Shown here in pieces: positions 43,497 through 61,297 of a stretch of DNA of 64,000 nucleotides. The stretch comes from Polyangia bacterium (GTDB taxonomy: Bacteria > Myxococcota_A > Polyangia > Nannocystales > Nannocystaceae): assembly GCA_030429545.1 (NCBI GenBank), contig JAUIFF010000001.1, positions 211,599 through 275,598 of the forward strand, read 5' to 3'. Position numbers and translations under genes: made by a program. A model generated the notes under the pieces. The model was not told where the DNA came from. It worked only from the letters and a program-made list of their open reading frames with translations, and did not search any database. Every line of letters starts with the position of its first letter. Position 1 is the first letter of the stretch.

Positions 43497-45359
<1,863 letters not shown>

Positions 45360-45372
45360 CCACTGGGGCGGG

Positions 45373-46437
45373 CTAGTTCGGCGGCGCCGATTGGGCTCCG
45401 GCTGTATCCGGAATATGGCTGGGAGCCGGCAAGAAGTCGGTCGAAAACGCGGCACTCGGATCGACCGATTTGGCTTCGAGCATGCCGGCCTCAACTAGTT
45501 GGTCATACAACGAAGACCAGCGCTCGAGTGTCATGGCCCCGGTCCCGAGTTTGGGCGCATCGCCGCCGGTGACAAGCGGGGTCAGGGCCGAGGCCCCGTA
45601 GTCGAGGACATCGATGGCCATCTCAGGGTTGAGCTGATGAATCTTCTTGTGGGTTGGTGCCGGGTCGGCGAGGTAGTGCTCCCAGCCGCGGACACTTGCA
45701 CGCACCATCTTGGCCACAGTCTCGCGATTGTCTTTGATCATGGCCTCTGAGGTAATCAACAAGCTGGCGTAGGGGTTGAAGCCGAGTTCCGAAACCATCA
45801 GGCAGCGGACCTTGGCACCCTTTGCCCGGGCGACAAACGGCTCGCTAAACACATAGGCCTGTTGGGCCATTTTGGTATCGACCAAAAATGCTGCGAGGTT
45901 GCCGGAGTAGGGGACAACCTTCACGCCCGTGAGTGGGGCGCGTCGCCGGAGAATTTGCGAAAACGGCTCCTTGGCGCCCATAGCTAGGGTCATGTCGGTG
46001 AGGTCACCAAGTTGCTCGACCCCGCTTTGCTCATGCACGAGGATACACCGCGGGCTTTCCTGGACAGGTGCCATCACAGCCACGAGCGGAGCCTGTTGAC
46101 CGCGGGCGAGCAAAACTTCGGCGGCTTCGGAGATACCAAAAGCGACGCGCCCGGTGGCAACCTGGGGCCCAACGGGGGCATCGGGACGACCGGGGATGAT
46201 CTCGACGTCGAGCCCTTCCTTGGCGTAGTAGCCATGGACGGCCGCGGCATAAAACCCACCGTGTTCAGCCTCGGGAAACCAGTTGAGCACCAACTTGACG
46301 GTCGACGATTTCGCCGTTTGTCCGCCGGCGTTCTCGGCCGACTTCTGGCAACCTGCGGACACAGCAAAAGTGCAGATACATGCAATCCCGAGAGCAGCTA
46401 CGAGCTTGCGATTGTTGTCCCGATTGGGTTGGCGCAC
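45373..46437 (-). CDS. NMT1/SsuA/TauA-like ABC-transporter substrate-binding lipoprotein
   Basis: Lipobox AVSAGC; LVLNWFPEAEHGGFYAA block typical of the NMT1/THI5 (nitrate/sulfonate/bicarbonate) substrate-binding family. Confidence 0.7.
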   Translation of the reverse strand: MRQPNRDNNRKLVAALGIACICTFAVSAGCQKSAENAGGQTAKSSTVKLVLNWFPEAEHGGFYAAAVHGYYAKEGLDVEIIPGRPDAPVGPQVATGRVAFGISEAAEVLLARGQQAPLVAVMAPVQESPRCILVHEQSGVEQLGDLTDMTLAMGAKEPFSQILRRRAPLTGVKVVPYSGNLAAFLVDTKMAQQAYVFSEPFVARAKGAKVRCLMVSELGFNPYASLLITSEAMIKDNRETVAKMVRASVRGWEHYLADPAPTHKKIHQLNPEMAIDVLDYGASALTPLVTGGDAPKLGTGAMTLERWSSLYDQLVEAGMLEAKSVDPSAAFSTDFLPAPSHIPDTAGAQSAPPN

Positions 46438-46458
46438 GGGGACGGTCTAACAGGCCGT

Positions 46459-47712
46459 CTAGGTCTCTCCAAGTAAAAAGACGGCGACGACTGTGAGGAG
46501 GAGCAACCCGACCAGGAGCAGCAGGCGCAACAGGTGGGAATTGGCGGACTCCTCCGGTCCTGAGTCTTCGTCGGGCAAAAACTGGAGGGTACTGGTGACC
46601 TCGGGATAGGGGTCGGTGGCCGGGTGTGGCGTGGGCAAGCGAGCGCCCGGGAGCATGTGCCGGCGTGTCGTCAACCTCCGGTAGGAGCGCCGCGAAGTCG
46701 AGCCTGCACTGTCTGACGAAAATATCGAGCCCTTGGTCAGGCTGTCCTCGGCGGCCCGAAGTTCCTGCGGGGAGTTGCCCGCGAGTTGGGTCGCCGACAG
46801 CAGCGCGCGTTCACTGGCGATCAGGGCCTCCGTCAGGGCGCGGGTGGTTTGGAAGCGTAGTTGCGGGTCCTTGTGTAGGGCCCGCAGCACAAGTGCCTCG
46901 AGTGGGGCAGGGATTCCGGCCGCGGGGGCGGCGTCTGAAAACGGAGGTGGTTGTTTGGTCAGGTGGCCGGCAACAATCTCGACCTCGTGTGAGCCCAAAA
47001 ACGGCAGGCGACCCGTGAGCATCTGGTACATCACCACGCCTAGGGCGTAGACATCGCTACGGGAGTCGGGTGGGTGCCCCTGGCAAAGCTCGGGCGCACG
47101 GTAGTGGGGATCGCTATTGTCTGTCCCCGAGGTCATGTGCGAAGACGACGAATTGGCGAGCACAAGCTTGGTGTCGTGCGACGTGCCAGTGAGCCCGAAG
47201 TTGACGATCTTGACAAGGTCGCGCGGGCCGTCTGTATCTACAACAATACAGTTGCGCGCGGTCAGGTTGCGGTGGATCAGTCCGTGCCGGTGAGCTGCGT
47301 GCAGGCCCCGGCAGATTTGCAGTGCCAGCCGGGTGGCGCGGACCCACGGCAATGGTCGCGAAGATTGCTGCAGCAACAACTCCAACGATGTGCCCTCGAT
47401 CCACTCTCCGACGAGGTAGTAGGAGCCATCCTCGGTTTGACCCCAGCCATGGACGGTTGCGATGTGTTCATGGGCGAGCATGGTCGCCTTGTTGGCAACG
47501 CCGGCCAAGCGCTGGGCAAATGCCTCATCCCCGCGTTGCGACTCGAACACTCGCAATGCGAAGGTTTCCCGATCGGGTGCACGTGTTGCCTCGTAGACAT
47601 CACTGAGATTGTCCTGGTCGATCCGCGGACCCAACGTCAGCGACGAGCCGACGACCTGGCCTGTGCGGGGCCCGGAGGTCTCATTGATTTGCGAGATAGC
47701 TTGCATGACCAA
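46459..47712 (-). CDS. Ser/Thr kinase-like protein, predicted pseudokinase, with C-terminal TM anchor
   Basis: Hanks-type fold with degenerate catalytic positions: HRNLTARN instead of HRDLKPxN, NFG instead of DFG, ALRV instead of VAIK, and a degenerate Gly loop. The APE box is retained. Confidence 0.65.
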   Translation of the reverse strand: MVMQAISQINETSGPRTGQVVGSSLTLGPRIDQDNLSDVYEATRAPDRETFALRVFESQRGDEAFAQRLAGVANKATMLAHEHIATVHGWGQTEDGSYYLVGEWIEGTSLELLLQQSSRPLPWVRATRLALQICRGLHAAHRHGLIHRNLTARNCIVVDTDGPRDLVKIVNFGLTGTSHDTKLVLANSSSSHMTSGTDNSDPHYRAPELCQGHPPDSRSDVYALGVVMYQMLTGRLPFLGSHEVEIVAGHLTKQPPPFSDAAPAAGIPAPLEALVLRALHKDPQLRFQTTRALTEALIASERALLSATQLAGNSPQELRAAEDSLTKGSIFSSDSAGSTSRRSYRRLTTRRHMLPGARLPTPHPATDPYPEVTSTLQFLPDEDSGPEESANSHLLRLLLLVGLLLLTVVAVFLLGET

Positions 47713-48072
47713 CGACGCTTCACCACGTATCCACAGTTTTGAGCCAGAATTCTAGCACCCAAACACTAGATTTGCTGGCAAACGACGTTCGTTTGTGAAA
47801 ATGGGTGATGCCCTGTCGGTTTCTCTCGGAGGTAGTGGCAGACGGTTAAGTTCCATTGCGCAAACTTTGCTGACACTGTTGTGGATTGATCGAAGGTTCA
47901 CTTCTCCGTTTGTATAGACTTTATGTGGCAACTGTGGTCAGCGTTTGCTGAGTACGCTTTCGCGCACATGTGCAACTCCCGCAGGTCAATGATCTCGAGC
48001 GGATCAAGCACGCCCCAAGGGGCTAAACAACCCTTGCGCTCGCGGCGGCCAGCGGCGTAGAAACAAGTCCTC

Positions 48073-51000
48073 GTGAAGCTTGTTCGTCGCGCCACCCTGA
48101 GCCACAAAGTCGGATCGACCGAAAAGGTCTACGAAGTCGAACTGTGTCGGGTCGCCAGCGGCAAGTTTCTCGTCAACTTCCGGTACGGGCACAAGGGCAG
48201 TGTCCTCAAGGAAGGGACCAAAACCCATCGCTCTGTCGCAGAAGCCAAGGCTCGCTCCATTTTTGCTCGACTCGTCGACGACAAAAAACGCAAGGGCTAT
48301 GTCGAGGCTGGGCAACCCCAACGGGTGGCGAAGAAGTCGAACAAAGGGTCGGGGTCGGCATTGCCGGCTTCGCCCGGGGATCGGATCAAGGGGATCATCG
48401 CCCGGGTCGAGAACCAAAATACGACGTCGTGGGCACTGTCCCGCGCGGTTTGGCGGGCTGGCGAGCTCAAGCTCAAAGAGGCCGTGCCCCACATGGTCAA
48501 GCTCGTTGGCTCGGGCTCATGGATGCTCCAGTACTGCTTAGCCTGGGCACTTGGTCGATGCGGTGACGCGACAACCTTTGAAGCCTTGCTGCGCACCCAG
48601 GGCAACGAGGTCGCGCTACTCAAGTGCGATAGTTGCCACAAGAAAAATCGGATTCCGTGGTCACGGTTTCCCACCTACGCTGCCAGCTGTGGCCATTGTG
48701 GGCAAAAGCTTCGCCGTGTCGATCGGCCGTTGAGCCTGGCGGCCGACTCGATTCAGGTGTTGTTTCCGGCGGCCTCCAAACATCCCGCAGTTGCGAGGAT
48801 GGCACTCGAAGCCGTGCGCGCCTGGGGTGGCGAGGCGGCCGAAAGTGTAGCTACATCGGTTTACGATTCGCTCCCGGGAGTCTTTCAACAGGCGCTCGAC
48901 AAAGAAGACGAAGACGCGTTTGCAGCTGCCCTCGAAGCCGAGTTGGCAGCACCCGGGCGTGATACCTGGACCATTTTAGAGCGGATCTACATGCTCGAGG
49001 ACCCGTGCATTCGCCCGGGCCTCCTCAAAGCACTGCGTACCCTCGACCTCAAACCCGGGGCGTTTCGGGCGATGCGACACATCTTTAAGCTCGCCGAAGG
49101 TCGGGGCGACGGCGAGGTGTTTGGTCTGCTCGCCTACCGGTTTGAGCGCGCGCGCGGGAACTTCCGCAACTCCCGTGTCTATACAAGTGTCCATGGGCGG
49201 TGGACCCGTGCCAGCACCGAGTTGGCCAAGGACGATTCGCGCCTGTGCTTTTCCAACACCACCCGCGAGTACATGCGCCGTCGCACCTGGCGGACGGTCC
49301 AGCGCTTGGGTGAGCTCGGCGAGGCCGAACAGTACGTGCGGATGGCGGTTGGTGTGTTGCTACCATTTACCGACACCGACGGCGGCAACGTCCGAAGCCG
49401 TCGCAGATACAACTACCGCACGCGGGGTTACACGACCGACTACTGGGATAAATTTTGCCAGTACGAGGCGTTTAACCGAGTCCTGTTTGACAACAGCCAT
49501 CGCTACGAGCGGCAGCATCGGGCCAAGTTGTGGCGTTGCACCGGCGGGTTTACGCCCGGTGATGCACTCCCGCAAAACCGCGAAGAGGCGTTTGCCGAGC
49601 TTTGGGACAAGGTCCCGGTCGGGCTGCTGCACTTGCTAGCCGAGAGCCGTTGCGAGCAGGTGCACGACTTTGCTTCGCGGGCGTTGCGGGCCAACAAAAA
49701 ATTCTGCGAGGGTCTCGATGTCGAAACCCTCACCATGTTGTTGGGTCGCGGGTACAAGCGCACGGTCCGGCTCGCGTTTGAGTTGGCAGTCGAGCGTTAC
49801 GACCCGCGCAACCCCGACATCGACTTGGTCGCAGCCATGGTCAACTGTTCGGTTGAGGAGGCACGGCTGCAAGCCCAGCGCTGGATCCATCAGGACCGTC
49901 AGCGGTTTTTGCAAGACCGTGGCCTCGTCGCCGACATGATCCTCTCGCAGCAACAGGACACCCGCAAGTTCACCGAGCGGTTGTTGGCGTCGGCCTCGCT
50001 CGATCCACTCGCCGCCGAGGCCTTGATCGCCACCGTGATTTCACGGCTGTTGGTCCTGTCGCCCGGCTTCAACGAGAACACGGCATTGGCCAAGGATGCC
50101 GGCGAGTTGTTGCTCAAGGTGTTTGCTCGGCCGCTGCGCTCGATCGGTTTGGGTGTTGTCGAGGACCTCGCCAAGCACAAGCTGGTGGCGCTGCAGCAGT
50201 TTGCCGCGCAAATCCTCGTGGCCCACGACACGCGCCCCCGCGACCTCCCCGAGGACTTGCTGGCGGCGGTCATGAACTCGATTCACCCAGACGTCCGCGG
50301 AATTGGCATCCGCCTGTTCGGTGAGTTGCCCGACCGCGAGTTGCTCGACCGCAAGGCCCTGATCCTCGCATTGGTGACCTCGAGGCAAGAAGATGTCCGT
50401 GAGGCCATCCGCCCGGTCATTCAACGGTTGGTCGGGACCTACCGCGAGTTTGCCGATGAGCTCTCGTCGCTTTTGCTCGCCAGCCTGCTGCGCAAGGAGT
50501 CCCACAAGGGGCTGCACAACTACCTCCTGCGGCTGTTTAAAGACGAGCTGTTGCCCTCGCTTCGGCACGTTCGTAAGCCGTTGGTGTTGCGACTTTTAAG
50601 GGCCCCATCGTCGGCTGCCCAGGAACTCGGTGGCTTGCTGCTCGCCCGCAACATCGACCCAGCCGAACTCACTGTGCGCGAGGTTGTACGGTTGGCCAGC
50701 CACGAGATTCGTTCGGTCCGCGAGGCCGCGTGGAAGTTTTACACCGACAACCCCGAGCGGATCCGTGACGAAATCGAAGAGGGGATCCGCCTGCTCGACG
50801 CCACCTGGGACGACTCGCGTGCATTTGCATTTGAGTGGTTTGGCACTGTGCTCGACAAGCACGACTTCGACCCGGATATTCTCGTGTCGATTTGCGATAG
50901 CGTGCGCGAAGATGTCCAGCAGTTTGGGCGCCGGTTGGTCACCCGCTACTTTACCGAACAAGACGGTCACGAGTACCTGTTGCGACTGTCGGAGCATCCG

Positions 51001-51378
51001 TCGTCGGAGCTGCAGATTTTTGCCAGCAACTACCTCGAAGACCACGCCAGCGGCTCGCTCGAGCGCTTGCGTGAGCTCGAGCCGTACTTTTGTAGTGTGC
51101 TGTCTCGGGTCAACCGCGGACGTGTGGCCAAAGCCCGTGTATTTGCATTTTTAGCTGCCGAAGCGCGCAAGTCCGACGAGGCGGCGGCGATGATTTCCAA
51201 GCTACTCACCCGGCAGTCGCTGACCATGGCGATCGGCGATCGGGCCAACTGCATCACCGGGATGTTGGAGCTCCATCACGAGCATCCTGACTTTGACATC
51301 CCGCTGCGGGTGGTGGCGGTGGAGCAGCGCACGGGCAAGTTCAGCAACTCAGCAGGGGAGGGGCAGCGTGGAGTTTAA
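48073..51378 (+). CDS. Large WGR-domain protein with extended alpha-helical (HEAT/ARM-like) repeat region; candidate retron accessory protein
   Basis: 1101 aa; N-terminal WGR-like domain (KVYEVELCRVASGKFLVNFRYGHKGS) followed by ~950 aa of predominantly alpha-helical repeats. Probable GTG start. Confidence 0.7.
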   Translation: MKLVRRATLSHKVGSTEKVYEVELCRVASGKFLVNFRYGHKGSVLKEGTKTHRSVAEAKARSIFARLVDDKKRKGYVEAGQPQRVAKKSNKGSGSALPASPGDRIKGIIARVENQNTTSWALSRAVWRAGELKLKEAVPHMVKLVGSGSWMLQYCLAWALGRCGDATTFEALLRTQGNEVALLKCDSCHKKNRIPWSRFPTYAASCGHCGQKLRRVDRPLSLAADSIQVLFPAASKHPAVARMALEAVRAWGGEAAESVATSVYDSLPGVFQQALDKEDEDAFAAALEAELAAPGRDTWTILERIYMLEDPCIRPGLLKALRTLDLKPGAFRAMRHIFKLAEGRGDGEVFGLLAYRFERARGNFRNSRVYTSVHGRWTRASTELAKDDSRLCFSNTTREYMRRRTWRTVQRLGELGEAEQYVRMAVGVLLPFTDTDGGNVRSRRRYNYRTRGYTTDYWDKFCQYEAFNRVLFDNSHRYERQHRAKLWRCTGGFTPGDALPQNREEAFAELWDKVPVGLLHLLAESRCEQVHDFASRALRANKKFCEGLDVETLTMLLGRGYKRTVRLAFELAVERYDPRNPDIDLVAAMVNCSVEEARLQAQRWIHQDRQRFLQDRGLVADMILSQQQDTRKFTERLLASASLDPLAAEALIATVISRLLVLSPGFNENTALAKDAGELLLKVFARPLRSIGLGVVEDLAKHKLVALQQFAAQILVAHDTRPRDLPEDLLAAVMNSIHPDVRGIGIRLFGELPDRELLDRKALILALVTSRQEDVREAIRPVIQRLVGTYREFADELSSLLLASLLRKESHKGLHNYLLRLFKDELLPSLRHVRKPLVLRLLRAPSSAAQELGGLLLARNIDPAELTVREVVRLASHEIRSVREAAWKFYTDNPERIRDEIEEGIRLLDATWDDSRAFAFEWFGTVLDKHDFDPDILVSICDSVREDVQQFGRRLVTRYFTEQDGHEYLLRLSEHPSSELQIFASNYLEDHASGSLERLRELEPYFCSVLSRVNRGRVAKARVFAFLAAEARKSDEAAAMISKLLTRQSLTMAIGDRANCITGMLELHHEHPDFDIPLRVVAVEQRTGKFSNSAGEGQRGV

Positions 51379-52999
51379 CTACCGCTACGCCGGTTCGACC
51401 GCGGTCGACTCGGGCGCCCGTTCGACGGACATGTCGTTTGCCCCCGATACCCATCGGGAGCCGACCTACTTCACGGGAGAGTTGCATAAGCAACTAGAGT
51501 TCCGAGAGGCGATTTCTGCCCTCCACGACGTTGTGGTTTCGGACCTGCGGTTCAAGCCCAAGGACAAAACGGCCTACAAAGAGTGGCTCGCCACCCAGGA
51601 GCAGGTCGACTGGCAACAGGTCGCCCAAAACCGCAGCCAGGTGCAGGCCGAAATCACGAGCACGCAACGCGAACTCAACGACCTGCAAACCCGCTTTCGC
51701 AACCGGATGTCGAGCTTTTACAAGGCCCGGCAAAAGTACTTCGACTACCTCTACAAAAAAGACCGCGACGCCTGGTTTGTTTTAGACCCGGTGATCACCG
51801 TCCACCCAGACCAGGTCTTTTTTGAGTGCTTTAGCCAGGACGAGTCGAGCTACGGCCGCCTAGGCTGCAACTACGAGGTGTTCAAGAACATCGGCGAGTT
51901 CGCCTGCGGGACCACCAACATCGACTACAGCGACGCGCTGTACAACGAGTTCCAAAAGATCCGTCGCTACAAAACCACCACGTTTCAGATCGACCCCGGT
52001 GGGTTTGATGTCGAAACCACCGGCGAAGACGGCTACCGCGAATGCAAGATCGACCTGCCCGACAGTTGGGTCCGCGGGTTTTTGCAAGTCAGCTCGGCCA
52101 TGACGCTGCCGGCAGTCCGCTTCGATTTGGAGCCGATGGACATTCACAACTTGTGCTTTGTCCTGCGTCGCAACCGCGAGCGTCACGGGCCACGCAGCAT
52201 GCGTTACAAGCTCAACCCCGGGCATCCCGTGCGGGTGGTGTTTGAGCCGTGGAATATCGAGGTTGTCTGCCCGCGTTCGATCTACAAGGGCGACTCCCAG
52301 CAGGAAATCCGCGTGTGGGGCCGTCGGCGGATCCACATCTTGGAGCGCCTGATCCCGGTCGCAAAAAAGTTTACAGTACATCTTTTAGGCCGTGGACTGC
52401 CCTCGTTTTACGTCGCCGATCTAGGCGATATGAACTTCACCCTCGGGCTTTCCGGATGGACCGCCAACGACTGGTCCAAGGCCGGCAACTTCGACCTGAT
52501 GGCCCCTCGGGCTAAGGTCGACACCCTCACCAAACGCCGTGTGTTTGACGCTCTCAAGCAAAACTGGCGCGAGACCCCGCAGAGCTTGGCCAGTCGGCTC
52601 AACCTCGACCGCAAACTCGTGTTGGGTGCGCTCGGTGCGTATACCCAGGCAGGACGTGCGATCTACGACCTCGACCAAGAAGTCTATCGCGTCCGCGAAC
52701 TCAGCCGCGACCCGCTGCCGATGGACAAACTGCGGTTTGCCAACGAACGCGAGCAACAGGCCAACCAGATCTGCGATCGTGGGCAGGTCAACGTCACGAG
52801 TGCCGACACGCGCATGAACGGAACCGTGACGGTGCGCGGACGCGTGTTGCGGTTCACCCCCGAACTTGTGATCGATCGCGACGAGCGGATGATCGACGCC
52901 CGCTGTAGTTGCAACTTTTTCTTTCAAAACAAGCTGCACAAGGGTCCGTGTGAACATATACTGGCCCTACGCATCGCCCACCGAAAGTCGCAAAAGTAG
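51368..52999 (+). CDS. SWIM zinc-finger protein; candidate retron accessory protein
   Basis: C-terminal CSCNFFFQNKLHKGPCEH matches the SWIM CxCx(n)CxH signature. The putative GTG start overlaps the upstream stop (GTGGAGTTTAA); an alternative ATG lies at ~51431. Confidence 0.65.
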   Translation: MEFNYRYAGSTAVDSGARSTDMSFAPDTHREPTYFTGELHKQLEFREAISALHDVVVSDLRFKPKDKTAYKEWLATQEQVDWQQVAQNRSQVQAEITSTQRELNDLQTRFRNRMSSFYKARQKYFDYLYKKDRDAWFVLDPVITVHPDQVFFECFSQDESSYGRLGCNYEVFKNIGEFACGTTNIDYSDALYNEFQKIRRYKTTTFQIDPGGFDVETTGEDGYRECKIDLPDSWVRGFLQVSSAMTLPAVRFDLEPMDIHNLCFVLRRNRERHGPRSMRYKLNPGHPVRVVFEPWNIEVVCPRSIYKGDSQQEIRVWGRRRIHILERLIPVAKKFTVHLLGRGLPSFYVADLGDMNFTLGLSGWTANDWSKAGNFDLMAPRAKVDTLTKRRVFDALKQNWRETPQSLASRLNLDRKLVLGALGAYTQAGRAIYDLDQEVYRVRELSRDPLPMDKLRFANEREQQANQICDRGQVNVTSADTRMNGTVTVRGRVLRFTPELVIDRDERMIDARCSCNFFFQNKLHKGPCEHILALRIAHRKSQK

Positions 53000-53047
53000 G
53001 GCGGCTTCAGGATTTACACCGGAGGAAGATCCAAGCATTTCAAGTTT

Positions 53048-53286
53048 TGTCATGACAGTGGCGGGGTAGGACCAGCCTTGCAGGAACGGGCGGCGGATCG
53101 CCGTCCATGCGATTTGCTCAATCATGCATCACTGGTTCGCTCTTTACTGTGCGGTACATCGGGGTAGCGGGACCATTCCAGTTCGGCTCCCGAGAAGCGA
53201 ATGTGTCCCGCTACCCCAAGTACCGCTGGAGTTGAGCGACCCAGTACTGAGAGCCTTCGAAGGCCCGACTCGCCACTGTCGTGACA
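53048..53286 (+). ncRNA. Candidate retron non-coding RNA (msr-msd) between the SWIM gene and the RT gene
   Basis: Bounded by a 14-bp inverted repeat (TGTCATGACAGTGG at ~53048-53061; CCACTGTCGTGACA at ~53273-53286, one G-U pair) followed by a G-run. It contains a small GC stem (GGGCGGC-ggatc-GCCGTCC) and a long hairpin GCGGTAC-atc-GGGGTAGCGGGAC...GTCCCGCTACCCC-aa-GTACCGC (~53151-53227). Confidence 0.5.
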
Positions 53287-53329
53287 CCTTTTTCCCGCTC
53301 GCATCCTGCGAGCACCTGTCCGGTTAGCC

Positions 53330-54886
53330 ATGTCTCAGCCCCGTACCCGCCAAGAGCTCTACGAACGGATCCGCGAATCCTCCAAAGATGAAGTCATCTT
53401 GGAGGAAATGATCCGCCTCGGGTTTTGGCCGTCCGGTGGCACCCTGCCCAACGACCCGGCCGACGAGATTCGCCGCCGCGGACAGCTGCAAAAAAAGCTC
53501 AACGACCTGCGGGCCCGTGTTCAGCGGATGTACAACGAGCGTCAGCTACTGGCCGATGCTCGCAAAAAACGCATGGCCGATGCCCGGCGGCGGCGGGTAG
53601 AGACCAAACAAAGGCGCGAGCAGGTACGGGCCGAGAAAGCCGCGGCTTGGGCCGAGCGCAAGAAACGTGAGCTGCTGTATTTGGGCGAAGAGGTTTCGGG
53701 TGCCCTGCAACATCGGTTGGCCAATCGCGACAAGCTCGCCGCCAACAAACTGCCGGTGTTTACCAGCCCCGAGGCACTCGCCAGCGCGATGCGTATACAA
53801 CTAAGCGAGCTGCGATTTTTAGCCTACGATCGCCAAGTTGCCAGGAGCCATCACTACCGCCGCTTTGAAGTGCCCAAAAAGACAGGTGGTGTCCGGCGGA
53901 TTTCAGCCCCGATGCCGCGGCTGAAGGCTGCGCAAACCTGGATTTTAAACCACATCCTCAAGCAAGTCCCGGTCCACGAAGCTGCCCACGGTTTTCGTCA
54001 CCACCGGAGTATCGCCTCCAATGCCCGACCACACTTGGGTGCGGACATTGTCATCAACATGGACTTGGAGGACTTCTTTCCCACGGTCACGTACCCCCGG
54101 GTAAAGGGCCTGTTCGTCTCACTCGGCTACAGCGAGTCGGTTGCGACCGTCCTGACACTGCTGTGCAGTGAGCCCGACGTCGAAGAGGTTGAACTCGACG
54201 GCAACCGCTACTTTGTCGCAGTCGGTCCTCGCCGTCTGCCCCAAGGGTCACCTGCAAGTCCCGCCCTCACCAACGTATTGTGTCGCAACCTCGACAAGCG
54301 ACTGGCCGGGTTGGCCGAGTCGATGGGCTTTACCTACACCCGCTACGCCGACGACCTGACGTTTTCTGGCGGTCGTGATGTGTCGCGGACCAGCTTGGTC
54401 GGGCGCCTGATTCGCGCAGTCGAAGACATCGTCGACCACGAGGGGTTCAAGGTGCATCCCAAAAAGACACGAGTGATGCGGCGGACAAAGAAGCTCGAGG
54501 TCACCGGTGTGACCGTCAACGACAAGCTCGGTGTCGATCGCAAAACCCTGCGTCGGTTTCGGGCCACGCTCTACCAAATCGAAAAAGACGGGCCCCAGGG
54601 CAAGCACTGGAATCACAGCGCCAATGTCTTGAGCTCGATGAACGGCTACGCAAACTTTGTGGCGATGATCGACCCCGAAAAGGGCCGAGAACTTCAGCGA
54701 CGCACACGAGCGTTGTTGGTCAAATATGGGCAAAAGCCAGTGGCTCCCCCCCCGCAGGCCGCAGCGCCCAAGGCGAGCCAGCCTCCTCCGCCCCCGCCCG
54801 CGGCGGCACCCAGCCCGTCAACGAGTCAGCCCGAGCCTGAGCCCGAGCCCAAGAAGAAAAAGAAGAAGCGCTGGAAGCTTTGGTAG
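53330..54886 (+). CDS. Reverse transcriptase, retron-type
   Basis: RT motifs IVINMDLEDFFPTV, LPQGSPASPALTN and YTRYADDLTF (YADD). Retron-associated NAxxH (SNARPH) and VTG (LEVTGVTVN) motifs. Unusual ~170-aa charged coiled-coil N-terminal extension and a Pro/Lys-rich C-terminus. Confidence 0.8.
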   Translation: MSQPRTRQELYERIRESSKDEVILEEMIRLGFWPSGGTLPNDPADEIRRRGQLQKKLNDLRARVQRMYNERQLLADARKKRMADARRRRVETKQRREQVRAEKAAAWAERKKRELLYLGEEVSGALQHRLANRDKLAANKLPVFTSPEALASAMRIQLSELRFLAYDRQVARSHHYRRFEVPKKTGGVRRISAPMPRLKAAQTWILNHILKQVPVHEAAHGFRHHRSIASNARPHLGADIVINMDLEDFFPTVTYPRVKGLFVSLGYSESVATVLTLLCSEPDVEEVELDGNRYFVAVGPRRLPQGSPASPALTNVLCRNLDKRLAGLAESMGFTYTRYADDLTFSGGRDVSRTSLVGRLIRAVEDIVDHEGFKVHPKKTRVMRRTKKLEVTGVTVNDKLGVDRKTLRRFRATLYQIEKDGPQGKHWNHSANVLSSMNGYANFVAMIDPEKGRELQRRTRALLVKYGQKPVAPPPQAAAPKASQPPPPPPAAAPSPSTSQPEPEPEPKKKKKKRWKLW

Positions 54887-55145
54887 TGCATTCGGCCCAA
54901 GCAGCAACGCTAGCCAGCTCGGCATTATCGCGGCGAACGAGCCGGAGAAGCCCTAGAAACTTAGTGCGTCCGGCCCCAAGTTGCTTAACTCGTTATCGCG
55001 GGCCGAGCCGGAGCCGGAGAAGAAGCTTTAGAAACTTTAGGTAGTGCGTCCGGCCCCAACTAACTCGTAATCGCCGGCGCCGAAGAAGATGCGCTAGAAC
55101 TTTGGTAGTGCGTCCGGCCCAGGGAGCGAGCCGGAGCCGAGGAAG
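54850..55145. repeat. Four degenerate ~70-bp direct repeats beginning at the 3' end of the RT gene
   Basis: Recurring gagccggag(aag)aagcgct.gaa.ctttggtagtgcgtccggcccca... units. The first copy includes the RT stop codon. Confidence 0.7.
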
Positions 55146-55372
55146 AAGCGCTGCAGTGGGTATCCGCAGTCACGCACCAACACGAATGGATCGTCCCCCA
55201 ATGGCACCGGGTCGCCTTCGATTTTGACCTCGGCTGTGACGACCCCGTTTCGAGACCCCCGAGGGCGACCGGTTTTTTGGCCGACAGAGCCAACCGTTTG
55301 GGCGTTGTCGCCAACTAAAAAAATATAATTGCCACCGATCGATCATCGCGGGCTCGTTACTTCACCCGTGTC

Positions 55373-58300
55373 ATGAGACCGAACCCCCGATGCTCCTGGT
55401 TGGCTGTAGTTCCACTTATCGCCCTTTCGCTTGCCTGTTGTTCACCTGCCTCAGACCTGCACTCACCGGTCACAGCAGCCGAGCCCATTGTCCAGCCCCG
55501 GGCGTTTTCGCTGCAGTTCGACACGGCCTCAGCTAGGTCTCAGCAGGCGCCGGCGTACCAGCTAACCACCAGTGATGGCACCGGACTTCGGCTCGTTTCG
55601 CTCAACGCTCGGGTCGCTATCGAAGACCCGTTGGCGCTGACCGAGTTGCACTTTGTGTTTGAAAATCCGCAGCCACGAACAATCGAAGGGCGGTTTGAAC
55701 TCGAGATGCCCAAGGGCGCCGCGATTTCGCGGTTTGCCATGAAGATCAACGACAGCTGGCAAGAGGGTGAAGTTGTTGAGCGTCAGCGGGCGCGTCGGGT
55801 GTTTGAGGACTTCTTGCACCGTCGCCAGGACCCGGCGCTGTTGGAGCACGACGCAGGCAACCGGTTTCGTGCGCGGGTGTTTCCGATTCCGGCAAATGGG
55901 CGCAAGGAGCTCATCGTGACCTATTCGCAGGAGTTGGGAACTGCGCCCGACCTCTACCGCTTGCCGCTTGTCGGCCTCCCGCAGCTCGATGAGTTGCAGG
56001 TGACCCTGGTGCAGGCGACGCGGGGCACATCGAACAAAAGTGTGTATACAAATGAAACAGCGATTGTGCATGCACCTACGGTCGGGGCGAGCAACTCGAT
56101 CCGCCGGCGTGCTTTTACGCCAACAGCCGATGTCGTGATCCACGAGCAGACTGGCGCACGCGAGCTCGGGATACGCCGCGGCGCGATGGCCATGGCTCGC
56201 GTCGAGCTGACCGCGGCGCCAGGAAAGACCTTCGAGGCTGCTCCCGTAGAGAGGGTGGTGGTGCTACTCGACACCAGCGCCTCGCAGACGCTCCGGCTCG
56301 CCGACACGCTCGCGCGTTTGCAGCAGCTTGTTGACCACTTGCAAAACAAGCGTCCGTTCGAGCTCCATGTACTTGCATTTGACCAGGAAGTTGTCGACAT
56401 CTATTCGGGGCCGAGTGGCGGGTTTGGTCTCGAGCAGCATCAGCGGGTGTTGCAGCGAGGTGCGTTTGGAGCGACGGACCTGGCCAAGGCGATGCAGACC
56501 GTGCGTGCCCGTAACCTCGAAGGCGCGCGGATTATCGTCGTTTCCGATGGGGTAGCGACTGCCGGTGTGGACGCGCCAGGTCGCCTCGGGGAGGTTGCTG
56601 CTGAGCTGCGGGCAGCCGGTGCGCACCGAGTTGATGCCATGGTGCCAGGTTCCAATAGCGATCGGGCAACCCTACGGGCGCTCACCGTGCCGACCAAGCC
56701 CGAAGGGGCCAGCGCCCGTGCCGGGATGACGCTCGACGCCCAATGGCCGACTGCGAAAGTTGCAAACTCCTTGCAGGCACAAGCTTTTACCAACGTTGCT
56801 ATTGATGTTCCAGGGAGTCGCTGGCTGTGGCCCCGAAGCCTAGATGGCGCACAGCCAGGCGATACGGTTACGATCTACGCCGAGATGGCCAACGCCAAAA
56901 ACATGCATGTGCATTTTCAGGGGGCAGCGCTCGCAGACAAGCAAATCAACCTGGCCTCGACACCCGGGCCGCTGCTCGAGCGCGCGTGGTTTGGCGCGCG
57001 AGTTGAGCACCTACTCGCCCAGTACGGTCACCTGCGAGACCGCGACCACCACGAGCAACGCCAGGCGCTCAAGCAGCATATCGTTGAGCTTTCCACCCAC
57101 TATCGCGTACTCACTCCGTTTACGGCCCTGCTGGTGCTCGAGTCCGAGTGGGACTACGAGCGCTATGGGATTGAGCGCCAAGCCCTAACCGACATCTTGA
57201 GTGTGGGGCCAAACGGTGTGGATGTGCTTGCTCGTACAAACACTTCTACCGCGGGCAGTTCACGAAGGTCGCAGGAGCCCACCCTTTCTGATGCATGGGA
57301 CAGCCCGGTGACCGAGCGCTTAGCTGGGCAAGACACCGATGGCGACGGCATTGCCGACAGCCACGACAGTTGCCCGAGTGCACCCGAGGCGCTCAATGGT
57401 TTCGAGGACGAAGACGGTTGCCCCGATGCAATCCCGATGCAAGTTGCCAGGTTTACCGGAACGATCAGGGGCATCCACTTCCCGCAAAACTCGGCCAAGA
57501 TCCAAAAGAAGTCTGCACCGGTACTCGACCGTGCGGCATCTGTACTCCAGGAATTCCCCGGGATTGTCGTCGAGGTTTCGGGGCATGCAAGCGCGGGAGA
57601 GCGGCAACCCGACAAGCTGGCAAAACGCCGGGCACAGGCGGTTGCCCGCTACCTGCGTGCCCACGGGATCGACAGCAAACAGGTTGTGGTGCGGGGTGCG
57701 GGGGTCAGCGAGCCGATCGACACCAACGAAACCAAAAAGGGTCGAGCGAACAACCGTAGGATCGAGTTTTCGTTGCGTTCGGGCGAATGGGTGCGCCGCA
57801 ACAATGCGGTGACACAGACCTGGGCACCAGCCCACTCAGGTAAGTACCAGGCGTTTCGCACATTGCTTGCACAGGAGCCCAACAAGTCACTTGTGCATGC
57901 AAAAACATGGCAAGCGAGCGAGCCCGGAAATGTAATTGCCCTGATCGCGCTCGCCGAGGCCCTCGAAGCTTCGGGGCAAACTGGCGAGGCGGCACGGGCC
58001 TACGGCTCGATCATCGATCTTTACCCGTCGCGTGCAGATTTGCGGCGACACGCCGGCCAGCGACTCGAGTCACTCGGCGTCGCAGGCCTAGAACTCGCGG
58101 CCGATACCTACAAAAAAGCGGTTGCCCAACGCCCAGACCATCCTTCGAGCCACAGGCTATATGCCTATACACTAGTACGTCTCGGTCGCCTCGAGGAGGC
58201 GTTTGAGGCGATCGTCGAGGGGCACAAACAGGAATATCCGCAGGGACGGTTTCGCGGGGTCAAACGCATCTTGAGCGAAGATATCGGATTGATCGCAGCC

Positions 58301-58771
58301 GCCTGGGCGAAGGCCGAACCCACGCGGCGAGCAGAGATCGAAACAAGGGCCCATCAGTGGGGACAGGCCCTGGCGAGTGAGCCCTCACTACGGTTTGTGC
58401 TGAGTTGGGAGACCGATGCCAACGACGTCGACTTCCATATCCGTGACGGCGCAGGCGGCCACGCGAGTTTCCGCCAACCCGCGCTTGAATCAGGCGGGGA
58501 GCTCTATGCCGACGTCACCACCGGCTACGGCCCCGAGTGCTTTGCCATCGATGGCGAGGCCACGGCGTTTCCGTACACACTCAACGCCCACTATTACCGC
58601 AAGGGCCCCATGGGCTTTGGTATGGGAACGGTGCAGGTACAAGCATATGATGGCAAGGGCAACCTCAGGTTTGCCGACCATCCATTTGTGATCATGAACG
58701 ACAACGCGGCGGTCGACCTGGGAACGATCGCCGAGCCGTTGTTTGAGGATGACACCACGGGCCGAAAGTGA
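55373..58771 (+). CDS. Large multidomain lipoprotein: VIT domain + vWA domain + thrombospondin-type-3 repeats/OmpA-like domain + TPR-like region
   Basis: Lipobox LSLACCS; VIT-like block (FENPQPRTIEGRFELEMPKGAAISRFAM); MIDAS VVLLDTSASQ; DTDGDGIADSHDSCP...EDEDGCPD calcium-binding repeats; OmpA-like ending NRRIEF. Confidence 0.75.
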   Translation: MRPNPRCSWLAVVPLIALSLACCSPASDLHSPVTAAEPIVQPRAFSLQFDTASARSQQAPAYQLTTSDGTGLRLVSLNARVAIEDPLALTELHFVFENPQPRTIEGRFELEMPKGAAISRFAMKINDSWQEGEVVERQRARRVFEDFLHRRQDPALLEHDAGNRFRARVFPIPANGRKELIVTYSQELGTAPDLYRLPLVGLPQLDELQVTLVQATRGTSNKSVYTNETAIVHAPTVGASNSIRRRAFTPTADVVIHEQTGARELGIRRGAMAMARVELTAAPGKTFEAAPVERVVVLLDTSASQTLRLADTLARLQQLVDHLQNKRPFELHVLAFDQEVVDIYSGPSGGFGLEQHQRVLQRGAFGATDLAKAMQTVRARNLEGARIIVVSDGVATAGVDAPGRLGEVAAELRAAGAHRVDAMVPGSNSDRATLRALTVPTKPEGASARAGMTLDAQWPTAKVANSLQAQAFTNVAIDVPGSRWLWPRSLDGAQPGDTVTIYAEMANAKNMHVHFQGAALADKQINLASTPGPLLERAWFGARVEHLLAQYGHLRDRDHHEQRQALKQHIVELSTHYRVLTPFTALLVLESEWDYERYGIERQALTDILSVGPNGVDVLARTNTSTAGSSRRSQEPTLSDAWDSPVTERLAGQDTDGDGIADSHDSCPSAPEALNGFEDEDGCPDAIPMQVARFTGTIRGIHFPQNSAKIQKKSAPVLDRAASVLQEFPGIVVEVSGHASAGERQPDKLAKRRAQAVARYLRAHGIDSKQVVVRGAGVSEPIDTNETKKGRANNRRIEFSLRSGEWVRRNNAVTQTWAPAHSGKYQAFRTLLAQEPNKSLVHAKTWQASEPGNVIALIALAEALEASGQTGEAARAYGSIIDLYPSRADLRRHAGQRLESLGVAGLELAADTYKKAVAQRPDHPSSHRLYAYTLVRLGRLEEAFEAIVEGHKQEYPQGRFRGVKRILSEDIGLIAAAWAKAEPTRRAEIETRAHQWGQALASEPSLRFVLSWETDANDVDFHIRDGAGGHASFRQPALESGGELYADVTTGYGPECFAIDGEATAFPYTLNAHYYRKGPMGFGMGTVQVQAYDGKGNLRFADHPFVIMNDNAAVDLGTIAEPLFEDDTTGRK

Positions 58772-58774
58772 ATA

Positions 58775-59730
58775 TTTCCTGCACGAAGAGTGAGGCAGGC
58801 TTCGATGGCGATTGGTCGCGCGAACATATTCCTGCACGAGGAGTGAGGCAGGCTTCGATTGAGATGGGTCGAGCGAGCATACTTTCAGCACGAAGAGTGA
58901 GGCAGGCAGGCTTCGATGGAACAACACGGGTCCTGCCGCGTACCCCACTTCGAGCCTCCGGGAGCACGGCAGTTGTGACGCATGTCTATGCAAGTGGTTT
59001 GGCGGGGCGCCGGCGATAGGGTGGAGCAGGACGTCGGTGCGGCCTCCGTTCGAAGTCGGGGACCCCCCGCGTCACCCGTTCGTCGGAGTTCGACGGTAGC
59101 CCGCATCTCGGGCAACCGTGAAACGGTGATGGCACCGCCTTGTTGACCCGCGTCAGGTTTCGGGTAGGCGCCGCTTGATGACCACGTTACTCGTTCGTTG
59201 GACCTTGGTGATGGCACTAACTGAGCGATGGAGACTGGTCGAGCGAGCATATTTTCAGCACGAAGAGTGAGGCAGGCAGGCTTCGATGGAACACCACGGG
59301 TCCTGCCGCGTACCCCACTTCGACCCTCCGGGAGCACGGCAGTTGTGACGCATGTCTATGCAAGTGGTTTGGCGGGCGTCGGTGAAACGGTGATGGCACC
59401 GCCTTGTTGACCCGCGTCAGGTTTCGGGTAGGCACCGCTTGATGACCACGTTACTCGTTCGTTGGACCTTGGTGATGGCACTGACTGAGCGATGGAGACT
59501 GGTCGAGCGAGCATATTTTCAGCACGAAGAGTGAGGCAGGCTTCGATGGAACACCACGGGTCCTGCCGCGTACCCCACTTCGAGCCTCCGGGAGCACGGC
59601 AGTTGTGACGCATGTCTATGCAAGTGGTTTGGCGGGGCGCCGGCGATAGGGCGGAGCAGGACGTCGGTGCGGCCTCCGGTCGAAGTCGGGGACCCCCCGC
59701 GTCACCCGTTCGTCGGACTTCGGATCCATT
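58775..59730. repeat. Compound tandem-repeat array (~950 bp) built from three sub-units; not CRISPR
   Basis: Unit A (~140 bp, ...ggtcgagcgagcatattttcagcacgaagagtgaggcagg...ggcagttgtgacgcatgtctatgcaagtggtttggcggg) occurs 3 times plus two truncated copies. Units B (gcgccggcgataggg...cgttcgtcgga) and C (gtgaaacggtgatggcaccgcc...gagcgatggagact) occur twice each, in order a'a'ABCACAB. Confidence 0.8.
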
Positions 59731-60130
59731 GCGTCTCGATTTCGTGATAGGCGGCGCGTAGGCGGTTCAGTACTCCAGCCCGGAACCACTGCCCGACGTC
59801 CGTACTTGATCGGAAGTTGAGGGGTTGGTGAAGAAAGCCGACGAGGTCTTCGAGTAACTGGTAAACAGCCCAGACCTGCTGTCGCTCGACGTTCAGTTTC
59901 GGCGCGGTGGTTGGTGCCTGACTTGGAGCCCCAAGCTCGCCATCTGGCTGGACGGGAAACCACTTGTGGCCGATGTTGTAGTAGGCGGCGTGGAGGCGCT
60001 TGTACATTCCTGCCGCCACCCACCTGTCGAGGCCTTCCGCCGTATGATCGTTCTTCGGGGTGGAAAAGAAGGCAACGAGTTCCGCGAACAACCGCGAAAC
60101 GGTTGTGACATCTCGTTGCTCGACGTCCAT
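59702..60130 (-). CDS. Hypothetical small protein with internal duplication
   Basis: 142 aa, two ~60-aa halves sharing ...GQWFRAGVLNRLRAAYHEIETQWI... and ...DRWVAAGMYKRLHAAYYNIGHKWF.... Its 3' end abuts the repeat array. Weak coding support. Confidence 0.35.
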   Translation of the reverse strand: MDVEQRDVTTVSRLFAELVAFFSTPKNDHTAEGLDRWVAAGMYKRLHAAYYNIGHKWFPVQPDGELGAPSQAPTTAPKLNVERQQVWAVYQLLEDLVGFLHQPLNFRSSTDVGQWFRAGVLNRLRAAYHEIETQWIRSPTNG

Positions 60131-60136
60131 GCTGGC

Positions 60137-61297
60137 CTACGAAACTACCGGCAGTGAACCTGGCAGTGAACCCGGCTTTGGCCCGCCCTTGAGTGCCAGC
60201 TGCCCGCAGGCGGCATCGATGTCGTCACCCCTCGGTGTACGTACAAATGCCCGGAGTCCGAGTTTGCGGCACAGATCGGTAAAGCGTTTGACCCGGGTTT
60301 TCGACGGGCGCTTAAACGGTGCCTGCGGGTGGGGGTTGAACGGGATGACGTTGATCTGGCAGCGCATCTTGGCGACCAACTGGTGCAGGCGGCGGGCATC
60401 GTCGTCGCTGTCGTTGACGCCGGCGAGTAGGACGTACTCAAAGGTGACCCAGCGGCGGCGGTGCAGCGGAACTTCGGCTACGGTTTTGAGCAGCGTGGCG
60501 ATGTTCCAGCGGGTGTTGATCGGCATCACCACGTCGCGGACCTTGTCGGTTGTGGCGTTGAGGCTGATGGCGAGGCCTACTTCGTTGCCGAGACCTTCGC
60601 GGCCAAACCGGGCGATCGCAGGGACGAGGCCCGCAGAGGAAATCGTGATCCGGCGCCCGGCAAAGTCGGCGCCCATGTCATCGGTGAGGACTTCGACTGC
60701 GCGCTTGACCTGGTTGTAGTTGTGCAGAGGTTCGCCCATCCCCATAAACACCAGGTTTTGCACGCGCTCGGGCCATTTTTGCCCGGTTTTCTCGGCCTCG
60801 GCTGCGAGTAGGTCCTGGGCTTGGTAGACCTGATCGACAATTTCCCAGGTGGCGAGGTTACGCGAAAATCCGAGGGTTTGGGTAGCACAAAAGGCGCAGG
60901 TGAGGGCGCAGCCGACCTGCGAGGAAATGCACTGGGTGTACCCGCGGTCGTCGTTGGGGATCAGCACACTTTCGAGGGCAAAACCCTCGGCCGTGAGCAG
61001 GCGAAACTTGCGGGTGCCGTCTTTGGCCCGGTGAACCTGGTCGACGGTGAGGTGCCCCAAACTTGTTGCTTGTGCAAGCTTTTCGCGATCGCTGGCCTTG
61101 ATGTTGGTCATGGCCTGCAGGTCGCGGGCGCGATGTTTGTGTAGCCAACTAAAAATTTGGTCGCCGCGAAACCGGGGCATACCGAGTTTGCGCGTGAGGA
61201 AGGCCGAAAGCTCGGTCCGACTCATTTCGCGCAAATCGATGGCCCCACCGCGGTGCAGTGGAGCCTTCGGGCCGCGGATCGCGACGACTTGGGACAT
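60137..61297 (-). CDS. rlmN: 23S rRNA (adenine2503-C2)-methyltransferase RlmN, radical SAM
   Basis: Radical-SAM cluster GCALTCAFCAT, an MGMGEPL block and a conserved C-terminal Cys. An alternative start lies 24 codons in. Confidence 0.85.
   Translation of the reverse strand: MSQVVAIRGPKAPLHRGGAIDLREMSRTELSAFLTRKLGMPRFRGDQIFSWLHKHRARDLQAMTNIKASDREKLAQATSLGHLTVDQVHRAKDGTRKFRLLTAEGFALESVLIPNDDRGYTQCISSQVGCALTCAFCATQTLGFSRNLATWEIVDQVYQAQDLLAAEAEKTGQKWPERVQNLVFMGMGEPLHNYNQVKRAVEVLTDDMGADFAGRRITISSAGLVPAIARFGREGLGNEVGLAISLNATTDKVRDVVMPINTRWNIATLLKTVAEVPLHRRRWVTFEYVLLAGVNDSDDDARRLHQLVAKMRCQINVIPFNPHPQAPFKRPSKTRVKRFTDLCRKLGLRAFVRTPRGDDIDAACGQLALKGGPKPGSLPGSLPVVS

Follow-up and report, generated by a model that had tools for sequence, protein, structure and literature searches.

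Type XIII comprises the first retrons found in myxobacteria; they are the oldest known retrons, and their role has been a question since 1984. Here we describe a locus at positions 48073-54886 of a 64,000-nucleotide stretch of DNA (hereafter the window) from a Polyangia bacterium of the Nannocystaceae (GenBank assembly GCA_030429545.1, contig JAUIFF010000001.1, positions 211,599 to 275,598), which we identify as a complete type XIII retron, intact and located on the chromosome of a Nannocystaceae-like myxobacterium. The type was defined by a reverse transcriptase (RT) of clade 10 together with linked partner proteins as well as its own non-coding RNA (ncRNA) structure (Mestre et al. 2020, PMC7736814). 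In that classification the cluster-114 partner has a central acidic DEDE motif, a winged helix and a C-terminal SWIM finger (CxCx12CxH), and it is preceded by a HEAT/ARM-repeat protein of cluster 216, mostly with an N-terminal WGR-like domain; the experimentally validated members with multicopy single-stranded DNA (msDNA) are Ne144, Mx162, Mx65 and Sa163 (PMC7736814, Table 1). Retron-Nex2 (msDNA-Ne144) of Nannocystis exedens has an RT of the same clade as the window RT, 59% identical to it (Q8VRM1, P0040); the two have the N-terminal extension in common, and both end in K-K-x-W-K-L-F/W. The partners are likewise those of Retron-Mxa1/Mx162, Mxa2/Mx65 and Sau1/Sa163, one being a WGR-HEAT/ARM protein and the other a SWIM protein that carries CxCx12CxH, and the order WGR-SWIM-ncRNA-RT is common to the window and to loci of Nannocystis, Archangium and Hyalangium. 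Compared with Nex2 and type XIII in general, the window is set apart by a zinc-ribbon insert, specific to its lineage, within the WGR-HEAT protein and by a downstream tract made up of decayed RT 3'-end copies, and its predicted msDNA would be shorter than Mx162, Sa163 and Ne144. Retron-Eco1 (Ec86) follows the same ncRNA logic, with a terminal a1/a2 duplex, an msr hairpin and an msd hairpin, but its RT lacks the ~125-aa N-terminal extension, the linker and the tail of the window RT, and its effector is a nucleoside deoxyribosyltransferase-like protein instead of a WGR-HEAT and SWIM pair. The context of the candidate priming G, CCUU-G-C in the window, resembles that in Ec86 (CCUUA-G-C).

The assignment to type XIII was carried by the PADLOC models of this type, each of which matched one of the three proteins: WGR_XIII with 1134.6 bits, SWIM_XIII with 810 bits and RT_XIII with 630.5 bits, the last covering RT residues 2-489, while the next RT model reached 315 bits. 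Pfam alone yielded WGR (E 0.0016), HEAT_2 (4e-6), SWIM (0.0016) and RVT_1 (5.9e-24); the matches of the partner proteins were weak, below or near gathering, and the PADLOC models proved decisive. NCBIfam contains no model for either partner. All the proteins by which the type is defined are present, i.e., the clade 10 RT, a cluster-114 SWIM protein and a cluster-216 WGR-HEAT/ARM protein. In a preliminary description of this DNA, a retron class that pairs the RT with an ARM-repeat and a SWIM-domain protein had been pointed to, and this class is indeed type XIII (PMC7736814); the WGR domain, which that description could not place in any characterised retron, belongs to the published definition of the type. 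The three plus-strand open reading frames (ORFs) that it listed, of which the first encodes 1101 aa, the second ends at 52999 and the third encodes 518 aa, turned out to be real, and the canonical RT blocks as well as NAxxH and VTG are all found as quoted there: SNARPH (N231-H235), NMDLEDFFP, QGSPASP, YADD (339-342) and LEVTGVTVN (VTG, 391-393). An RT with NAxxH, VTG and YxDD next to a same-strand ncRNA with a1/a2, msr and msd is what characterises retrons generally. The best match of the RT core among solved structures was the Ec86 RT (E 8.6e-47 over residues 136-471), and the NCBIfam retron families scored 219-223 bits against this protein compared with 73 bits for group II intron RTs and 36 bits for Drt2. 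Judged by this strong homology, the retron identity of the locus and the production of msDNA by its RT and ncRNA seem nearly certain. A myxobacterial origin, as first proposed, is borne out by the nearest named relatives, which are metagenome-assembled genomes (MAGs) of Nannocystaceae, Polyangia and Myxococcales as well as Nannocystis species. The RT is 83-90% identical to proteins of Nannocystaceae MAGs, and at most 65% identical to anything in the species-representative genome set. Taken by itself, the locus is ordinary: it adds a further representative to a type that has been part of the classification since 2020, occurs commonly in metagenomes and is covered by PADLOC.

Between gene 2 and gene 3 lies a gap of 330 nt (53000-53329), longer than the ~280 nt given at first. 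The 239-nt element within it (53048-53286) folds with a minimum free energy of -135.1 kcal/mol versus -88.3 +/- 4.7 kcal/mol in shuffled sequences (z = -10). Its terminal arms, a1 and a2, form a duplex of 18 bp, including one G-U pair, with a score of 44 versus 24.4 +/- 3.4 in shuffles, and a1 starts 48 nt behind the stop codon of the SWIM gene, in line with the ~50 nt previously estimated. Of the 65 intergenic regions examined, 57 had counterpart arms of unrelated sequence, spanning 213-286 nt, and the others yielded a best repeat that was shorter; the arms were located locus by locus and were too variable across phyla for alignment with MAFFT. An alignment of 30 sequences across phyla revealed four invariant blocks, CCUUGCA, GGGCGGYGGAUCGCCGUCC, CACUGG...CCAGU and CGAAGG, which enclose an msd tip that varies freely. 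RNAalifold predicted 54 pairs from this alignment, 37 of them with compensatory changes. When pairs were counted over the 30 loci, 91.3% of the cells were paired compared with 35-44% in slid controls, double-sided changes numbered 288 compared with 58-96, and none of 500 shuffles matched the covariation score. An nhmmer profile built from these loci had a single match in the window (53056-53274, E 5e-46), and about 70 loci yielded a match that lies upstream of the RT. The window ncRNA is therefore, as its profile matches indicate, a member of one family conserved upstream of the RTs of this clade, those of Nannocystis, Archangium and Hyalangium included, and the upstream element expected from the preliminary description is conserved with covariation in homologous loci. 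A scan of positions 46000-57000 against Rfam at E ≤ 10 returned chance-level matches alone and no retron family.

Several elements of this RNA can be given a probable role. The CCUU of the first invariant block (53076-53079) pairs with AAGG (53260-53263) and lengthens the a1/a2 stem, helix 1 being paired to 98%. In characterised retrons the branching G stands at the end of the terminal stem (cf. the introduction of Mestre et al.), and because the invariant G53080 directly follows the extended stem, it is the likeliest candidate for this nucleotide. The msr hairpin GGCGGCGGAUCGCCGUCC occurs with at most three mismatches in 47 of the 65 intergenic regions, from Myxococcota, Acidobacteriota, Planctomycetota, Cyanobacteria, Proteobacteria and Bacteroidota, with compensatory changes at four of its eight pairs, and is a probable recognition element for the RT. 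The distal stem of the msd carries compensatory changes at 21 of 22 pairs, and a compensatory change in the msd stem is apparent even against L081, the locus of a relative with a 90% identical RT. The msDNA would measure ~125-135 nt, templated from ~53259 back to ~53130, if the layout of Mx162 applies, in which the branch G lies ~57 nt from the RNA 3' end and DNA and RNA overlap by 8 bp. The window has a single ncRNA; two or three tandem copies per RT are present in L013 (5064-5554), L032 (7530-7980) and L036 (7261-7932), and also in L002, L026, L028, L038, L046, L048 and L051. These copies have a common conserved core, but their msd tips and a1/a2 arms diverge in a compensated manner, so that one RT may make several msDNAs. 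In L083, a 52-aa ORF was called antisense to the ncRNA (8425-8583), probably as an artefact of the gene caller. The features of the locus are collected in Table 1.

Table 1. Features of the type XIII retron locus and of the adjoining repeat tract (positions are those of the window)
Feature	Positions	Strand	Basis or remark
Gene 1, WGR + HEAT/ARM solenoid protein, 1101 aa	48073-51378	+	PADLOC WGR_XIII; Mestre cluster 216-like
WGR domain, gene 1 residues 1-76	48073-48300	+	
Zinc-ribbon-like insert CxxC-x17-CxxC, CDSCHKKNRIPWSRFPTYAASCGHCGQ, gene 1 residues 185-209	48625-48699	+	weak Zn_ribbon_Thio2 and GATA matches
Gene 2, SWIM protein, 543 aa	51368-52999	+	PADLOC SWIM_XIII; Mestre cluster 114-like, 'primary' associated protein
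Predicted two-domain DNA-clamp (PCNA-like) fold, gene 2 residues 140-361	51785-52450	+	AlphaFold2 model
Winged helix-turn-helix, gene 2 residues 386-443	52523-52696	+	
SWIM zinc-finger module, gene 2 residues 474-543 (C513-x-C515-x12-C528-x-H530)	52787-52996	+	Pfam SWIM
Retron ncRNA (msr-msd), a1 through a2, 239 nt	53048-53286	+	fold, profile, covariation
a1 arm, terminal inverted repeat, UGUCAUGACAGUGGCGGG	53048-53065	+	pairs with a2
Invariant CCUUGCA block	53076-53082	+	30/30 aligned loci
Conserved msr hairpin, GGCGGCGGAUCGCCGUCC	53088-53106	+	
msd region, long composite hairpin, helices 4-7, tip 53186-53198	53131-53245	+	
a2 arm, terminal inverted repeat, CUCGCCACUGUCGUGACA	53269-53286	+	pairs with a1
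Gene 3, retron RT, 518 aa	53330-54886	+	PADLOC RT_XIII; RVT_1; Ec86 RT
RT N-terminal extension, residues 1-135	53330-53734	+	clade-specific; invariant MIRLGFWP
Cationic-aromatic RT tail KKKKKKRWKLW, residues 508-518	54851-54883	+	candidate membrane-targeting peptide
Repeat tract, ~3.5 decayed tandem copies	54887-55160	+	repeat families D1-D5

The linkage of the three genes was assessed in a scan of species-representative genomes, which gave 590 confirmed relatives, with 80 loci kept from Myxococcota, Acidobacteriota, Cyanobacteria, Planctomycetota, Bacteroidota, Proteobacteria and Verrucomicrobiota. Among the 55 loci with at least 5.5 kb of upstream sequence, 49 have the order WGR-SWIM-RT on one strand, as in the window, three have RT-WGR-SWIM, and three have neither partner gene. 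The co-occurrence of the two upstream genes with this RT clade thus extends to 52 of 55 loci; on 18 further short contigs the SWIM gene lies directly upstream of the RT. The partner-less loci (L014 and L015 from cyanobacteria, L033 from Planctomycetota) contain the RT with 8 kb on each side; L033 retains the ncRNA, and L014 and L015 gave no ncRNA match. In the cyanobacterial L019, L020, L023, L035 and L043, the ncRNA follows the SWIM gene at a distance of 0.4-2 kb from the RT.

The start of the SWIM gene had to be revised. Its longest ORF opens at TTG 51293, but homology in about 65 loci begins only at ORF residues 23-28, the database protein P0121 (543 aa) is 100% identical to the shortened product, independent gene calls on the Logan contigs L083 and L084, which carry the same locus, support GTG 51368, and this codon is preceded by a Shine-Dalgarno sequence (AGGGGAGGGG-N4-GTG). 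We therefore placed the start at GTG 51368, which leaves the described overlap with the gene 1 stop codon (TAA, 51376-51378) in place at 11 nt. The predicted architecture of the protein opens with an N-terminal region and a long helix (82-135), continues with two clamp-like domains (~140-361) and closes with the winged helix-turn-helix and the SWIM module; all 32 aligned members have a Pfam SWIM match, the best with an E value of 2e-6. A monomer AlphaFold2 (AF2) model, built from 32 homologs, was good for residues 249-361 and 386-543, and it predicts for residues 140-361 the arrangement expected of a clamp, i.e., tandem domains of two beta-alpha-beta-beta-beta units each. This region also holds a nearly invariant WGRRR (317-321). 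When compared with PCNA, the 9-1-1 checkpoint clamp and the herpesvirus proteins UL42, UL44, BMRF1 and PF-8, the domain has 5-12% sequence identity and no profile-level match; unlike these clamps, it shares one polypeptide with a long N-terminal helix, a winged helix and a SWIM finger, has the invariant acids E153 and D158, and is encoded next to a reverse transcriptase. PDB sequence and profile searches gave no solved homolog of the SWIM protein, weak winged-helix matches aside.

A library-wide profile search identified 1526 representative clusters of SWIM-protein relatives at E ≤ 0.001, whose common core starts at about residue 135. In relatives that are 28-49% identical, P141, E153, D158, G181, W234, P294, W295, W317, P345 and R443 are invariant, and the WGRRR sequence and the SWIM Cys and His residues are nearly so. 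The acidic pattern of Mestre et al., D140-x7-D148-x4-E153-x32-D186-x38-E225, is present in the window protein; judging by the invariance in distant relatives, only two of the five 'DEDE' acids are kept universally. Two relatives have additional domains: P0389 (667 aa) ends in a BRCT domain (E 1.3e-15), and P0398 (661 aa) has a WGR domain inserted ahead of the SWIM finger (E 3e-18). Together with the clamp-like fold, these additions resemble the repertoire of eukaryotic DNA-damage sensors. The gene 2 product is 67-76% identical to homologs of several phyla, and it is the most conserved of the three components, which is unusual for a presumed defence effector: measured against the window across phyla, the SWIM protein reaches identities of 53-76%, the RT 45-65% and the WGR-HEAT protein 26-56%. 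In the literature searchable here, we found no paper linking retrons to PCNA or sliding clamps, and nothing relevant on the combination of SWIM, WGR and DUF4132. Outside retrons, WGR, SWIM and MoxR-VWA genes may also be neighbours, as among the yeh genes of E. coli, a parallel on which none of our conclusions rests.

The WGR domain of gene 1 matches the PARP WGR fold and is followed by a disordered linker (residues 81-95) and HEAT repeats, which form a long alpha-solenoid reaching about residue 1070, with a conserved beta-containing insert at residues ~365-490. It differs from PARP1/2/3 and from bacterial WGR proteins (PDB 2ra8) in that the protein has no ADP-ribosyltransferase domain and joins its WGR to a HEAT/ARM solenoid of ~1000 aa. 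The only matches of the 1101-aa protein in PDB sequence and profile searches were designed HEAT repeats (alphaRep). The zinc-ribbon-like motif sits in a ~55-aa insertion of a HEAT loop and was found in four of 46 aligned homologs, namely the window protein and its three nearest relatives (P0242, P0243 and P0244); to judge from this alignment, it is a lineage-specific feature.

The RT comprises the N-terminal extension, a core (136-471), a linker rich in Pro, Ala and Glu, and the tail. The extension, which the preliminary description had noted and could not place, does exist, with ~125-135 aa relative to the Ec86 RT and ~180 aa up to the start of Pfam RVT_1, but it is conserved across the whole clade and falls within the PADLOC RT_XIII model. 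As to the tail, basic-W-x-x-[WF] forms the C-terminus of 114 among the 120 closest RT homologs. In a census of 75 complete RT ORFs from the fetched loci, this type accounted for 39, including KPWWDVL and WWNIF variants; six to eight had amphipathic basic-hydrophobic ends such as GLLGRLRSFFKK and GGLFGRLLKKLFGK, eight ended in a hydrophobic, transmembrane-like helix of at least 18 residues, and 22, mostly cyanobacterial, had no tail. Transmembrane-like ends of 18-25 residues were seen in L042, L044, L047, L055, L069, L072 and L076, and such ends occur in Methylobacterium, Pleionea, Vibrio, Photobacterium, Enterovibrio and Yokenella. Because cationic-aromatic, amphipathic and transmembrane ends replace one another as membrane-targeting sequences do, we propose that the tail is a membrane tether, for which we see a slightly better than even chance.

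These observations can be assembled into a working model, which as a whole we consider likely. The 239-nt msr-msd RNA would fold with its ends paired, a1/a2 being extended by CCUU/AAGG, and would be bound by the RT, most likely via the msr hairpin. The RT would prime on the 2'-OH of the terminal-stem G (candidate G53080), copy the msd and yield a branched, RNA-linked msDNA, as has been found experimentally for Ne144, Mx162, Mx65 and Sa163; by homology, these steps of folding, priming and synthesis are close to certain. The resulting msDNA-RT particle might then be bound by both co-inherited partners, acting as a set that senses DNA ends or duplexes and not as toxins, with the SWIM protein supplying a PCNA-like double clamp, the WGRRR basic cluster, a winged helix and the SWIM finger, and the 1101-aa protein a PARP-like WGR on a HEAT/ARM scaffold. 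Such a sensing set fits the data because relatives add BRCT or shift the WGR domain into the SWIM protein, and we consider it an even bet that the partners read a duplex, an end or a junction of the particle. In the window lineage, the tail on its disordered linker would hold the particle at the membrane. The msDNA complex could serve as a guard whose disturbance by a phage switches the partners on; by analogy with characterised retrons, the odds of such phage sensing are somewhat below even. The sole candidate catalytic feature is the acidic cluster of the first clamp-like domain. We also make a tentative proposal, which we consider less likely than not: type XIII retrons may have no conventional toxin, and their partners may be a eukaryote-like DNA-damage-sensor set, sometimes with BRCT, that loads onto or reads the msDNA hairpin together with its branched end. 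The RT would keep the particle at the membrane by its tail in many lineages, and the output may lie in disturbing replication and repair or in signalling to them instead of nuclease, NADase or pore toxicity.

A number of points weigh against this picture or against parts of it. The locus is known here from sequence alone, and the branching G and the msDNA length were derived from the alignment and from the dimensions of Mx162. The AF2 model of the SWIM protein is moderate overall (mean predicted local distance difference test, pLDDT, 61; predicted template modelling score, pTM, 0.40), poor at residues 128-247, with the first clamp-like domain below 50 pLDDT, and the protein gave no sequence or profile match to any clamp in PDB searches or among the Pfam clamp families. 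No toxin or enzyme domain was found in the WGR-HEAT or SWIM protein with Pfam and NCBIfam; the earlier label of 'effectors' was thus an assumption, and the analogy with abortive infection lacks an effector. Since 22 of the 75 RTs are tail-less, membrane tethering cannot be essential to the family. The neighbours (a PAS histidine kinase, an NMT1-like protein, a Ser/Thr kinase, a VIT-VWA-OmpA-TPR lipoprotein, RlmN and an AI-2E transporter) make up a housekeeping and signalling context and no defence island, and the degree to which the SWIM protein is conserved is unusually high for a defence gene. Type XIII tracks host phylogeny, correlating moderately with host 16S, and domestication has been suggested (PMC7736814). 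A functional study of the type XIII accessory proteins was not found in the searchable literature. Several of these points would be explained if the same retron were domesticated and vertically inherited, with a role in host replication, repair or recombination and not in abortive infection, the clamp-like, WGR and BRCT-type partners engaging DNA ends or the replisome and the msDNA serving as cofactor or regulator. The vertical inheritance reported by Mestre et al., the housekeeping context (RlmN, histidine kinase, Ser/Thr kinase, with RlmN remaining nearby in L081), a SWIM protein more conserved across phyla than the RT, and the lack of any toxin domain found make this a serious alternative, if still a doubtful one. 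SWIM homologs were moreover absent from 50,697 phage records and occurred on plasmids only in non-mobilizable replicons of 0.75-2.8 Mb, and the PCNA-like, WGR and BRCT repertoire is that of DNA-damage sensors. However, all retron types characterised to date are anti-phage, PADLOC counts type XIII among defence candidates, the patchy spread over many phyla at 45-65% RT identity also fits horizontal transfer, and two or three diversified ncRNA copies, as in some lineages, are expected under conflict-driven diversification.

The remaining alternatives concern single components. Mestre et al. (2020) proposed that the SWIM protein is a transposase-derived DEDE nuclease, and it could be a toxic effector that cleaves DNA once freed from the msDNA, the likeness to PCNA being an artefact of a model of middling quality. 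The five acids of the Dx7Dx4Ex32Dx38E pattern are in place, E153 and D158 are invariant even at 28-49% identity, the acidic region coincides with the lowest AF2 confidence, and SWIM fingers are known from Mutator-type transposases; with two of the five acids kept universally, we nevertheless regard a nuclease as unlikely. The RT tail, KKxW(K)L[WF], might be no membrane anchor but a peptide resembling the PCNA-interacting peptide (PIP) box, docking on the clamp-like domain as polymerase tails do on PCNA or UL42. Clamp-binding peptides are usually short aromatic C-terminal motifs behind a disordered linker, the SWIM partner is predicted to be clamp-like, and the conservation of the tail in the closest RTs would suit such a contact; yet an 18-25-residue hydrophobic or a MinD-like amphipathic helix replaces the tail where WGR and SWIM proteins are intact, the ~22 tail-less RTs retain both partners, and the Q-x-x-[LIM] part of a PIP box is missing. 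As a conserved docking motif fits poorly with replacement or loss of the tail while the partners are kept, this idea was demoted and appears improbable. That the RT belongs to a non-retron class (group II intron, diversity-generating retroelement, abortive-infection RT or defence-associated RT) beside an unrelated upstream structure is scarcely credible: its generic RVT_1 domain would allow this, and nothing further speaks for it, whereas the bit scores of retron models are 3-17 times higher than those of group II or defence-associated RT models, the sequence contains NAxxH and VTG, the Ec86 RT is its nearest solved structure, the ncRNA has the a1/a2, msr and msd layout, and neither an intron RNA, a maturase or endonuclease domain, a template/variable repeat pair nor Avd was found with Pfam and Rfam.

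The value of the locus lies in the structural leads that it offers on the type XIII partner proteins, for which we found no solved structure, the locus itself being of modest interest. Three points are new: the predicted clamp-like fold of the SWIM protein, for which a transposase-like nuclease had been proposed, the PARP-like WGR domain with relatives that add BRCT, and the alternation of the RT tail with transmembrane or amphipathic helices across lineages, which suggests membrane tethering. They turn the function of myxobacterial retrons into concrete experimental questions. The ncRNA, with a highly conserved core around an msd tip that is free to vary, and the relatives with two or three tandem ncRNAs may also be of use in engineering retrons for DNA production.

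The repeat tract behind the RT gene is real, as the preliminary description had it, although it extends beyond 55145 to ~55160. Its unit consists of the last ~55 nt of the RT gene plus ~25 nt of 3' flank, with spacings of 82, 75, 66 and 57 nt, and the motif GGTAGTGCGTCCGGCCC has four occurrences, confined to the RT 3' end and the tract, versus 0.3 expected. A dispersed REP-like element was considered for this motif and rejected on account of that confinement. As a feature of the retron the tract did not hold up: it is not a family trait and is missing from L081. Homology between L081 and the window breaks off precisely at the stop codon of the RT (54886) and restarts at RlmN (60192); positions 54887-60191 are therefore a lineage-specific replacement, with the tract at its edge. 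In the window this interval contains the tract and the gene of the VIT-VWA-OmpA-TPR lipoprotein (55373-58771), and in L081 different genes take its place over 8.5 kb (APH kinase, AraC, hydrolase, SDR and FMO). The RT 3' end thus marks a synteny breakpoint on which decayed copies of that same end lie, and the tract is probably a by-product of rearrangement that has no function for the retron. A scan for promoters and terminators gave three promoter-like sites versus 1.1 expected and no excess of terminators. One sigma-70-like site (TGCACA-16-TATACT, 52935-52962), ~85 nt upstream of a1, falls on conserved SWIM-finger codons and is probably coincidental. Upstream of the retron operon, the Ser/Thr protein kinase gene (46459-47712, minus strand) is divergent from it at a distance of 360 nt, and the gene of the PAS-HisKA-HATPase sensor kinase (43497-45359, plus strand) lies further upstream.

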